Position numbers and translations under genes: made by a program. Positions 19,115-33,372 of a stretch of DNA of 64,000 nt are shown here, piece by piece. This stretch comes from a virus (taxonomy: Duplodnaviria; Caudoviricetes), in IMG/VR virus record IMGVR_UViG_3300030420_000007, positions 358-64,357 of that record; one strand, 5' to 3'. Positions within the stretch are counted from its first letter, which is position 1. Each line of letters begins with the position of its first letter. The notes below the pieces were generated by a model that did no database searches, was not told where the DNA came from, and saw nothing but the letters and a program-made list of their open reading frames with translations.

Positions 19115-19170
19115 TACCCTGGGTTTTTAACCAGGTATTGATTAACCGGCCTCTGGGGCGCTTTTACGCG

Positions 19171-19186
19171 CCTCTATATATAGAGG
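19171..19186. promoter_or_regulatory. Perfect 16-bp palindrome
   Basis: CCTCTATATATAGAGG is its own reverse complement. Confidence 0.7.
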
Positions 19187-19322
19187 GACCCCCGGCCTGA
19201 GATCGTGGCGCCTGGCTCGATCTGGGCGGGCTCCCGGGCCTGTTTGCCACCCCAGTTTTGCCCGTGTGTAAAAATCAGTTAATATTCCCCTCCATCAATT
19301 AGTGGTGGAAATCCCGTCAGGC

Positions 19323-19353
19323 AAAGCCCGCGCATCGTATGGCGGGCTTTTTT
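19323..19353 (+). terminator. Rho-independent terminator (tR'-like position)
   Basis: AAAGCCCGC..CAT-CGT-ATG..GCGGGCTTTTTT. Confidence 0.8.
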
Positions 19354-19399
19354 GTTGTCTGAGGCACACCAAGGGTCCCCGGCCAAGCCTGTGCGGCCT

Positions 19400-19802
19400 G
19401 GGTGGTCCATCAGGGTCCTAGTAGGACTGGGGGCGCTTGTCTCCCACTCCCAGTCCCTTGGCCTCGGCCATGACTGTTGGAAGTTGCCCTGATGGTCTGC
19501 TTTGCCAAGCCCCCGACCTCCTCGGTTGGGGGTCGGGGTCGTTTTGGGATCCCACCAGCATTGACCAAGCCGCTTGAAGGCAGATAAGACCAGACAAGAC
19601 ACTACTGCTGAGTCCCACCCTTTAATGCTTCGCCACCCGCAGGCGGCTTGGTCAATGCAAAGTTTTGAGGCATCCGGTTCTTACGTAGTCGGGACAACGG
19701 GTTAGCGCCGTCGTCTGGTCCTGATGGAATCTCCTCTCGGGGTTAAGTGGAACGCCAACGCTGCTTCATGCGAGCCGGCCACCAACAGACCCGGATGCCT
19801 CA
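19400..19802 (+). ncRNA. Candidate structured non-coding RNA (family unknown; strand inferred)
   Basis: Perfect 16-bp helix 19558-19573/19643-19658, 12-bp helix 19666-19677/19791-19802, 9-bp helix 19407-19415/19487-19495, inter-domain complementarity 19588-19595/19713-19720; no convincing ORF. Confidence 0.55.
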
Positions 19803-19823
19803 CCCCGATCAGCAGGAGACCCC

Positions 19824-20348
19824 ATGCTGGATGACACCAAGTGGAACGCCGACTTCATCGGCAAGGCCATCGCCTACCAAATCTTCAAGCGCGCCGACCT
19901 CGTAGTACCCAACTGCTACTGGACGGGCAACGAAACCGACCTCCTAGTCATCGAGCGTAAGGGTCTCCGCATCATCGACGTCGAAATCAAGATCAGCAGG
20001 TCAGACCTGAAGGCCGATCTGCGTAAGGACAAGTGGTGGGTCAAGCGACCGTGGTCACGTAGATCAGGACAACCGACCCGGCTTGAGTGGCCAGCCAAGG
20101 TCTGGAAGCACTACTACGTAATGCCCGCCGAGATTTGGGATCCCAAGCTCTACGACGACATCCCCCAAGCATCGGGCATCGTTACGTTAAAGCACCAACG
20201 TAGCAAGACCACACCGATCTCAGCAGTCCTAGTACGTAGGGCCAAGCCCAACAGGGAAGCAAAACCAATAAGCCCGCATGACGCCATAGACCTAGCAAGA
20301 CTAGCTACCCTCAGGATGTGGGCGGCTTTAACCAAGGAGAAGCAATGA
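19824..20348 (+). CDS. MmcB-like PD-(D/E)XK nuclease-fold protein
   Basis: ETDLLVI...DVEIKISRSDLKAD..K...HYYV.P. Confidence 0.75.
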   Translation: MLDDTKWNADFIGKAIAYQIFKRADLVVPNCYWTGNETDLLVIERKGLRIIDVEIKISRSDLKADLRKDKWWVKRPWSRRSGQPTRLEWPAKVWKHYYVMPAEIWDPKLYDDIPQASGIVTLKHQRSKTTPISAVLVRRAKPNREAKPISPHDAIDLARLATLRMWAALTKEKQ

Positions 20349-33335: not shown

Positions 33336-33372
33336 AGGGAGGCCTTACGGGGCCTCCCTTTTCTTTCTTTTT
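33336..33372 (+). terminator. Rho-independent terminator after MCP
   Basis: AGGGAGGCC-TTACGG-GGCCTCCCT then TTTTCTTTCTTTTT. Confidence 0.85.

Follow-up and report, generated by a model that had tools for sequence, protein, structure and literature searches.

The locus and its relatives

We analyzed 64,000 nucleotides (nt) of viral DNA, called the window below and numbered from its first letter, which make up nearly all of the 64,357-bp IMG/VR virus record IMGVR_UViG_3300030420_000007; terminal repeats are on record for this virus. Between the genes for a 222-aa protein and a 174-aa MmcB-like protein lies a gene-free gap of 709 bp (19115-19823). The gap contains a region (19400-19802) that an earlier sequence-only reading flagged as a novel structured RNA of three consecutive domains, which we call domains 1, 2, and 3. 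Comparison with other phages indicates that the flagged region is a chain of separate modules rather than one RNA machine, and that domain 3 clearly belongs to a large, covarying family of phage RNAs. The gap itself looks like a late control region in which an antiterminator protein of the Q type would act.

The three long helices that close the domains are exact and can be read straight from the sequence: 9 bp for domain 1 (19407-19415/19487-19495), 16 bp for domain 2 (19558-19573/19643-19658), and 12 bp for domain 3 (19666-19677/19791-19802). Overall, the region contains 7 separate perfect helices of at least 8 bp, whereas 300 dinucleotide shuffles gave 1.31 +/- 1.17 and never as many as 7. 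The excess over chance is made up of five local, nested helices. The other two are long-range pairings, at approximately the number expected by chance (about 1.3). The minimum free energy (MFE) z-score is -3.97 on the plus strand and -4.10 on the minus strand, values so similar that folding energy alone gives no choice of strand. The region does lie between a terminator and the first late gene, as first described, and an additional conserved terminator (t2) was identified within it.

BLAST searches of 50,697 GenBank phages returned no DNA match to the gap. Relatives were recognized by their proteins and gene order. A metagenome contig, L029, was reached through the 174-aa protein, and ten further relatives, found in a protein collection on contigs of 60-70 kb, have identical gene order and a gap of 440-1200 bp at the matching site. 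A cultured relative, Edwardsiella phage vB_EpM_ZHS (ZHS), has the matching gene order and a 608-bp gap. The order PTPS, MazG-like, Q-like (the 222-aa protein), long gap, MmcB-like, and terminase is kept in more than ten relatives and in ZHS. Two other viral contigs matched by the 174-aa protein (L002 and L003) were discarded as not syntenic. The closest terminase relative, L027, gives no gap sequence because its contig ends before the gap.

A family of phage RNAs with two invariant loops

The first clue to a wider family was a short block of domain 3 that recurs in distant relatives. Members of the family are 80-110 nt long. A long helix, P1, whose sequence is wholly different in every phage, closes a three- or four-way junction. 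Within the junction, P2 is a covarying stem on which two G-C pairs close an invariant 7-nt loop (GUUAGCG), and P4 is a 3-bp stem with an invariant 8-nt loop (UGCUUYAU); between them lies a variable linker of 27-60 nt. The MFE fold of domain 3 reproduces P1, P2, and P4.

A covariance model (R1) was built from 10 members, with the window excluded from building. It matches domain 3 over the full model length with a score of 45.3 bits (E 5.7e-9), and this is the sole match in the 64 kb. R1 confirmed 76 matches and later matched 70 of 74 new loci, with 74 matches in all. The exact two-loop pattern occurs at 51 viral loci and a looser version of it at at least 119. The exact pattern was also matched 12 times in bacterial genomes, mostly of Burkholderiales and Psychrobacter. 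In total, the family has more than 130 distinct members; the phages that carry it span AT-rich to GC-rich genomes, and it also occurs in Burkholderiales and Psychrobacter prophages.

Several lines of evidence indicate that the helices are real. P1 length is 8.6 in the family versus 2.2 in flank-swap controls. In two alignments, 90.5% and 93.8% of cells that should pair do so, compared with 59-61% after shuffling and 27-50% with slid partners; both alignments were fitted to the model, so these shares are inflated, which tempers the case made here. For 17 of the 19 pairs, changes are seen on both sides. In the alignment of 73 distinct sequences (A11), which were not used in building the model, pairing is 93.8% versus 61.5% in shuffles, with none of 500 shuffles reaching the observed value, and 425 cells are changed on both sides versus 125 in shuffles. 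G-U pairs exceed A-C mismatches by about 4:1 (59:21 and 110:25 in the two alignments), which points to a single-stranded role of the gene strand.

Many freshwater members in A11 (e.g., L129, L138, and L153) have near-identical P1 helices (5' arm GUUGGUGG, 3' arm CCACCAAC) and differing P2 stems, and other lineages favor GAUGG/CCAUC in P1. There may thus be a sequence preference of some kind in P1.

The pairing statistics bear directly on whether the inverted repeats act on DNA. They could form a packaging or terminal site, an ssoA-like replication or priming signal on displaced single-stranded DNA, or a recombination site, and the position of the gap, ~1 kb upstream of the terminase genes, would suit such a role. 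The helices are also overwhelmingly Watson-Crick, so the element may function as single-stranded DNA, a point that counts against an RNA. The ssoA single-strand origins of rolling-circle plasmids carry RSB and CS-6 boxes (PMC6395029), and the two invariant loops contain 5-9-nt look-alikes of these boxes; strand-specific function is a further likeness. In L082, two perfect DnaA-box-like 9-mers, 22 nt apart, occur at and just beyond the P1 3' arm of a family member (L082:3478-3512, minus strand), which they overlap; a major head protein gene follows.

We nevertheless consider a DNA-level role quite improbable. The predominance of G-U over A-C on the gene strand rules out a double-stranded or cruciform role. 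G-T is poorly tolerated in DNA, and the many G-U pairs favor RNA over an ssoA-like element. When folded, ssoA of pE194 gives one long hairpin rather than a junction. The order of the boxes is opposite to that in ssoA, the fold is different, and ssoA elements belong to Gram-positive plasmids whereas the family occurs in tailed phages mostly of Proteobacteria. The orientation of the element follows the genes, and, against a pac or cos site, the same element is found in phages with different terminase types.

The family was not recognized in existing catalogues. Neither the window nor 10 member loci matched any Rfam 15 model at the gathering score. At E values of up to 10, nothing was found on domains 1 to 3 of the window, and the best-scoring member gave only noise. 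ARAGORN predicted no tRNA gene in the window or at the motif sites of 8 member loci. The earlier failure to assign the region to a tRNA, ribozyme, or riboswitch class is thus borne out by Rfam and ARAGORN. A literature search with the loop sequences returned only look-alikes in tRNA D-arms, and no description of the family was found in Rfam 15 or in the papers searched. Short known motifs were compared and rejected as too short or structurally wrong: the ops element (RfaH), boxA (nut and rrn leaders), the tRNA-Leu(UAG) anticodon loop, the T-loop, the integron attC core, and the ssoA RSB and CS-6 boxes.

A related survey reported 8,495 candidate structured RNAs from IMG/VR (Fremin et al. 2023; PMC10690425). 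Its candidates come from the same data source and, like the family described here, are covarying motifs upstream of phage genes. No motif described in its text has the features of the domain-3 family, and no candidate matches via Rfam 15. The family may be among the unnamed candidates of that survey.

Domains 1 and 2

Domain 1 is, by comparison among relatives, a real structure that is specific to this phage lineage, including ZHS. Its closing helix shows paired substitutions among relatives when the alignment is inspected by eye. Inside it, the hairpin 19424-19433/19447-19456 presents a loop with an invariant GUCUCCC (19439-19445). In 12 relatives the stem sequences of this hairpin differ yet pair, and the loop core is invariant. 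A small hairpin follows (19459-19470), with a UUCG loop in L029 and L037. We considered whether the pyrimidine runs of domain 1 (GUCUCCC) and domain 3 (UCUCCUC) pair with the ribosome-binding site (RBS) of the first late gene. Such a pairing reaches 6 bp in the window and was rejected, as it is not conserved in L029 or ZHS.

Domain 2, in which a perfect helix closes a 69-nt loop, appears to be a lineage-private hairpin without comparative support. No alignable counterpart was found among the relatives, and L029, L035, and L037 have other sequence at this site. A search of viral contigs with the 16-mer of the helix gave 23 matches, all of them chance matches with dissimilar flanks. What the relatives have at the site, after t2, is a strong RBS followed by a start-stop mini open reading frame (mini-ORF; ATG, 0-2 codons, and a stop). 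The window has merely a decayed look-alike of this arrangement (~19574-19592).

The sequence-only reading joined the three domains into a single RNA in which the loop of domain 2 kisses domain 3 (19588-19595/19713-19720) and an alternative pairing between ~19406 and 19728 might act as a conformational switch. The complementary 8-mers and the alternative pairing of 8-12 bp do exist in the window, and a single transcript over the whole stretch is probable. Nonetheless, about 1.3 helices of this kind are expected in the region by chance, so neither contact exceeds the chance level, and positions 19713-19720 are partly taken up by the 3' arm of P2, which covaries strongly. Domain 2 is absent in relatives, and with it the proposed kissing partner; the kissing contact is missing from L029, L035, and L037, and domain 2 and both long-range pairings are missing from these three and ZHS. 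We regard a single switching RNA as very improbable.

The claim of structured RNA survives in another form. The region is non-coding and has conserved, covarying structure on the gene strand, and domains 1 and 3 pass comparative tests. A single three-domain RNA held together by a kissing contact is not supported. The domains differ in evolutionary history: domain 3 is shared with many unrelated phages, domain 1 is lineage specific, and domain 2 is found in this genome only.

A putative Q-type late control region

The gene that adjoins the gap upstream is predicted to encode an antiterminator. The 222-aa protein has no match in Pfam. A profile of its family has no significant match among PDB sequences, and the protein used as a query in viral contigs gave no match. 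The family alignment shows an invariant four-Cys cluster (PCxCxxPCCxG) and a helix-turn-helix-like C-terminus. An AlphaFold2 (AF2) model has a predicted local distance difference test (pLDDT) score of 77.8, with low confidence in the N-terminal third. The best Foldseek matches of this model are AlpA chains (7xyb_G and 7xya_G; E 1.4e-3, prob 1.0). VIA-align superimposes it on 7xyb_G with a Z-score of 11.6 over 158 of 168 residues; the second match has a Z-score of 6.3, and the phage 21 Q complex (6jnx_P) a Z-score of 5.5. The Q/AlpA fold consists of an N-terminal ring-forming segment and a C-terminal helix-turn-helix, and the predicted structure fits it.

Based on this model, we predict that the 222-aa protein is a Q-like protein with the AlpA/21Q fold. 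It would define a new sequence family of Q-like proteins with a cultured representative in ZHS, whose homologue (ZHS_98) is annotated merely as a "DNA-binding protein." AlpA and Q proteins join RNA polymerase when it pauses close to the promoter, after which terminators are ignored (PMC9371919). Given the Q-like fold of the protein encoded upstream, the gap looks like a Q-type late control region.

Features in the gap are consistent with this assignment (Table 1). A palindrome and an inverted repeat near the start of the gap are candidate regulator-binding sites upstream of a putative late promoter. The -10 element of this promoter, TAATAT, is invariant in the window, L029, L035, L037, L042, and ZHS, and the full promoter reads TTGACC-18-TAATAT in L029. 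The conserved block that follows may be a pause or loading site for the Q-like protein. Beyond it is t1, the stem of which shows compensatory differences in L029, L035, L037, and ZHS. The second terminator, t2, retains compensatory stems and a T-run in L035, L037, L040-L042, L045, and ZHS. The arrangement of regulator gene, putative promoter, and intrinsic terminator ahead of the operon is seen in the window and 12 relatives.

We propose that the flagged region belongs to a ~470-nt leader, untranslated and under Q-type antitermination control, of the late operon (packaging and head genes). Only RNA polymerase modified by the Q-like protein would pass t1 and t2, and the leader would be made late in infection. 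Farther downstream, another strong terminator, on the plus strand (33336-33359), lies within the late operon, so tail genes beyond it would need read-through too.

The compared late control regions are lambda PR'-qut-tR', those of the phage 21 and 82 Q proteins, and that of Pseudomonas AlpA with PalpB and tB (PMC9371919 and PMC7969949). As in these, the regulator gene is directly 5' of the promoter and an intrinsic terminator is found within ~70 nt, followed by late or lysis genes. Like lambda Q, the 222-aa protein has an inserted Cys cluster, but it has no sequence similarity to the known Q families. Also unlike those regions, this one has a leader of ~470 nt in which a conserved folded element separates two successive terminators, and no -10-like pause hexamer was recognized in it.

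Taken as a whole, the model of a modular late leader under Q-type control, with domain 3 as a widespread RNA module, seems to us evenly poised between right and wrong. Several findings weigh on the negative side. A strict scan detected no sigma-70 promoter in the gap, and no -10-like pause hexamer (NANNNT) was seen by eye in the conserved 19-nt block. Both the start site and the passage of polymerase through t1 and t2 are presumed, as is transcription itself. No RNA run was found among the sequencing runs that match the window sequence, and the near-complete matches are the source viral metagenome and its sister library. Finally, the close relatives ZHS, L042, and L045 do not have domain 3, which therefore appears to be an optional module that this late operon can dispense with.

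Table 1. Features of the gap and its surroundings, in window coordinates unless a contig is named
Feature	Position	Strand	Details
DUF932, QueD-like, and MazG-like genes			5' of the gap, as is the 222-aa gene
Gene for predicted Q-like (AlpA/21Q-like) antiterminator, 222 aa	18446-19114	+	predicted fold; adjoins gap upstream
Terminator-like hairpin	19118-19135	+	terminator scan; directly 3' of the Q-like gene; kept in L029
Perfect 16-bp palindrome	19171-19186	unstranded	centered on TATATATA; self-match; core kept in L029
6-bp inverted repeat	19200-19205/19218-19223		follows palindrome; core kept in L029
Putative late promoter	19258-19285	+	weak -35 at 19258-19263; -10 TAATAT at 19280-19285; inferred
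Conserved initial transcript block	19292-19310	+	ends ...TAGTGGTGGAA; near-invariant in 4 close relatives; core in ZHS
Intrinsic terminator t1	19326-19353	+	6-bp GC stem (19326-19331/19342-19347), then six T
Domain 1, lineage-specific structured leader element	19400-19500	+	between t1 and t2
Second intrinsic terminator, t2	19511-19548	+	terminator scan
Domain 2	19558-19658	+	perfect 16-bp helix closing a 69-nt loop; not conserved
Start-stop mini-ORFs of relatives	L029:2600-2640; L037:2425-2455; L035:2530-2560; L223:4688-4710		read in L029, L035, L037, and ZHS
Domain 3, member of the P1-P2-P4 RNA family	19666-19802	+	model R1 match at 19685-19782
Domain 3 outer helix P1	19666-19677/19791-19802	+
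Domain 3 P2	19693-19700/19708-19715	+	loop GUUAGCG at 19701-19707
Run within the pyrimidine-rich linker of domain 3	19730-19736	+	UCUCCUC
Domain 3 P4	19759-19761/19770-19772	+	loop UGCUUCAU at 19762-19769
RBS and first gene after the leader	19814-20348	+	RBS at 19814-19819; 174-aa MmcB-like protein; phrog_2776 and weak MmcB-like match; relatives carry PF06319
Terminase genes, then portal gene	from 20770		3' of the 174-aa MmcB-like gene
Strong two-way intrinsic terminator in late operon	33336-33359		directly 3' of probable major capsid gene

Genomic habits of the domain-3 family and possible functions

A family member is usually followed, after 20-100 nt, by a gene in the same orientation. The downstream genes are mutually unrelated and include those for MmcB-like, capsid, and minor head proteins, terminase and portal, DNA polymerase, a methylase, and RecT/ERF/SSB. 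No neighboring protein is shared among the family loci, and the Q-like family is encoded nearby in L048 and L075 only. In L056, L065, L061, L055, L059, and L088, a near-consensus sigma-70 promoter lies upstream of P1, its end separated from P1 by 5-8 nt. A sigma-70 promoter ahead of P1 was rejected as a rule for the family, being clear in only ~7-9 of 40 lineages. Two copies occur close together in L055, L058, L067/68, L122, L148, L164, and L185. Pairs on the same strand are found at L058:3815-4003, L055:3825-4502, and L067:2584-2893, and in L058 the two copies stand in tandem, with 25 nt between them and a DNA polymerase gene downstream. In L094, the strand opposite a family member carries a Betaproteobacteria-1 RNA (RF02932, 87.6 bits; L094:5511-5640) at a distance of ~400 nt.

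We tentatively favor the reading that the family is a self-contained module at the head of messages, recognized by a host machine, although we think it less likely than not to be correct. At the 5' end of the transcript or close to it, the module would form a stable closed junction. Its two invariant loops would be read by a conserved host machine, not a phage protein, and the beginning of the downstream message would thereby be marked, shielded, or processed. In our ranking, this is followed by a put-like antiterminator, a ribozyme or RNase-processing signal, a riboswitch, and a DNA-level element, in that order.

The surroundings of some members argue against a head-of-message role as the full account. 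A terminator T-run abuts P1 in ~20% of members versus 5% in the background, and a T-run occurs directly after P1 in ~22% of members versus 3.7%. Given this enrichment, a module at the head of messages is insufficient as the only explanation. In L059, L088, L092, and L096 the gene that follows the member is on the opposite strand. It is possible that certain phages use the element as a small RNA in its own right, or that P1 also serves as the stem of a terminator.

A second possibility is that family members are protein-independent, cis-acting antiterminator RNAs of the HK022 put type. Once the nascent RNA had folded, its two loops would grip the elongating host RNA polymerase, and downstream terminators would be ignored. 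HK022 put RNA is found at the extreme 5' end of the transcript and binds the zinc-binding domain of the polymerase beta-prime subunit (PMC9378689). Family members are likewise promoter-proximal, at the heads of long recombination/replication and late operons, as nut and put sites are in lambdoid phages. Like HK022 putL and putR and like canT of Tn916, which requires 340-450 nt (PMC11658703), they are folded RNAs near a promoter that have no dedicated or common phage protein partner and occur in more than one copy per genome. Terminators are enriched nearby, and the late operon of the window contains a strong one.

The architecture, in contrast, is different. Put, as known here from its description, consists of two adjacent irregular stem-loops with specific internal bulges and no closing helix (PMC9378689), whereas the domain-3 family has a P1-closed junction with two invariant hairpin loops; no sequence resemblance to put or canT was seen. 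In the window, domain 3 lies downstream of t1 and t2, and the Q-like protein would already supply antitermination, so a second system would be redundant here. Where a T-run follows P1, the element also resembles a terminator more than an antiterminator. We think that put-like antitermination is unlikely.

An RNA-processing signal, at which polycistronic transcripts would be cut at the borders of gene blocks, would match other habits. The element could be a new self-cleaving ribozyme with an active site formed by docking of its two conserved loops, or a cloverleaf mimic cut by a host RNase (e.g., RNase P). Like small phage ribozymes, family members are intergenic, on the gene strand, sometimes tandem, and without an associated protein. 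Their size, closing helix, and loops able to dock are similar to those of phage hammerhead, twister-sister, and hairpin ribozymes (PMC3088659), and also of purine-type aptamers. The order of P1, P2, linker, and P4 follows a cloverleaf, and a CCACCA-like run is common in the 3' strands of P1. The bacterial copy at L102:328-360, in a Castellaniella genome, ends 10 nt before the apparent start of a tRNA gene. Unlike ribozymes and aptamers, the family keeps its conserved letters in two terminal loops rather than in the junction. The junction strands, the usual site of a ribozyme core, are short, weakly conserved, and A-rich, and neither the Rfam ribozyme and tRNA models nor ARAGORN gave a match. 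A processing signal is not a probable function in our view.

A fourth possibility is that the timing of the late genes depends on a ligand-sensing riboswitch, formed either by domain 3 or by domain 1 with t2; the sequence-only reading named probing with preQ0/preQ1 as a check, and these ligands would come from the 7-deazaguanine pathway of the phage. A P1-closed junction with conserved loops does resemble purine-type aptamers, and 22% of the family have a T-run right after P1. The fold of domain 1 is conserved directly before a terminator, and the phage has a QueD-like gene. Yet unrelated downstream genes in unrelated phages are atypical for a metabolite sensor, the junctions are poorly conserved, and no known riboswitch family matches. 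What is invariant in domain 1, a 7-nt pyrimidine loop, suggests a site for base pairing or protein contact rather than a binding pocket. We give metabolite sensing little credence, and the preQ0/preQ1 link finds no support, as the family heads very different gene sets in very different phages.

Implications for phage gene control

The timing of phage gene expression is explained mostly through proteins. To our knowledge, just a handful of phage leader RNAs, such as nut and put, have a known mechanism. The locus described here would extend antitermination of the Q/AlpA type to a new sequence family, in a leader that is unusual in having a folded element flanked by two terminators.

The domain-3 family comprises at least 130 distinct covarying members with two invariant loops, has no fixed gene partner, and has no Rfam entry. 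Being small (80-110 nt), the element makes direct tests of cleavage, polymerase binding, RNase processing, and ligand binding feasible. It is possible, though on balance we doubt it, that the family represents a class of phage RNA with a new function, acting without any phage protein, either by reprogramming polymerase in the manner of put or by being cleaved or processed. If this is true, hundreds of unrelated tailed phages, mainly of Proteobacteria, plug the element in at the heads of operons and sometimes use it as a stand-alone small RNA. The wide spread and strong conservation of the family lead us to expect that its function is a general one.

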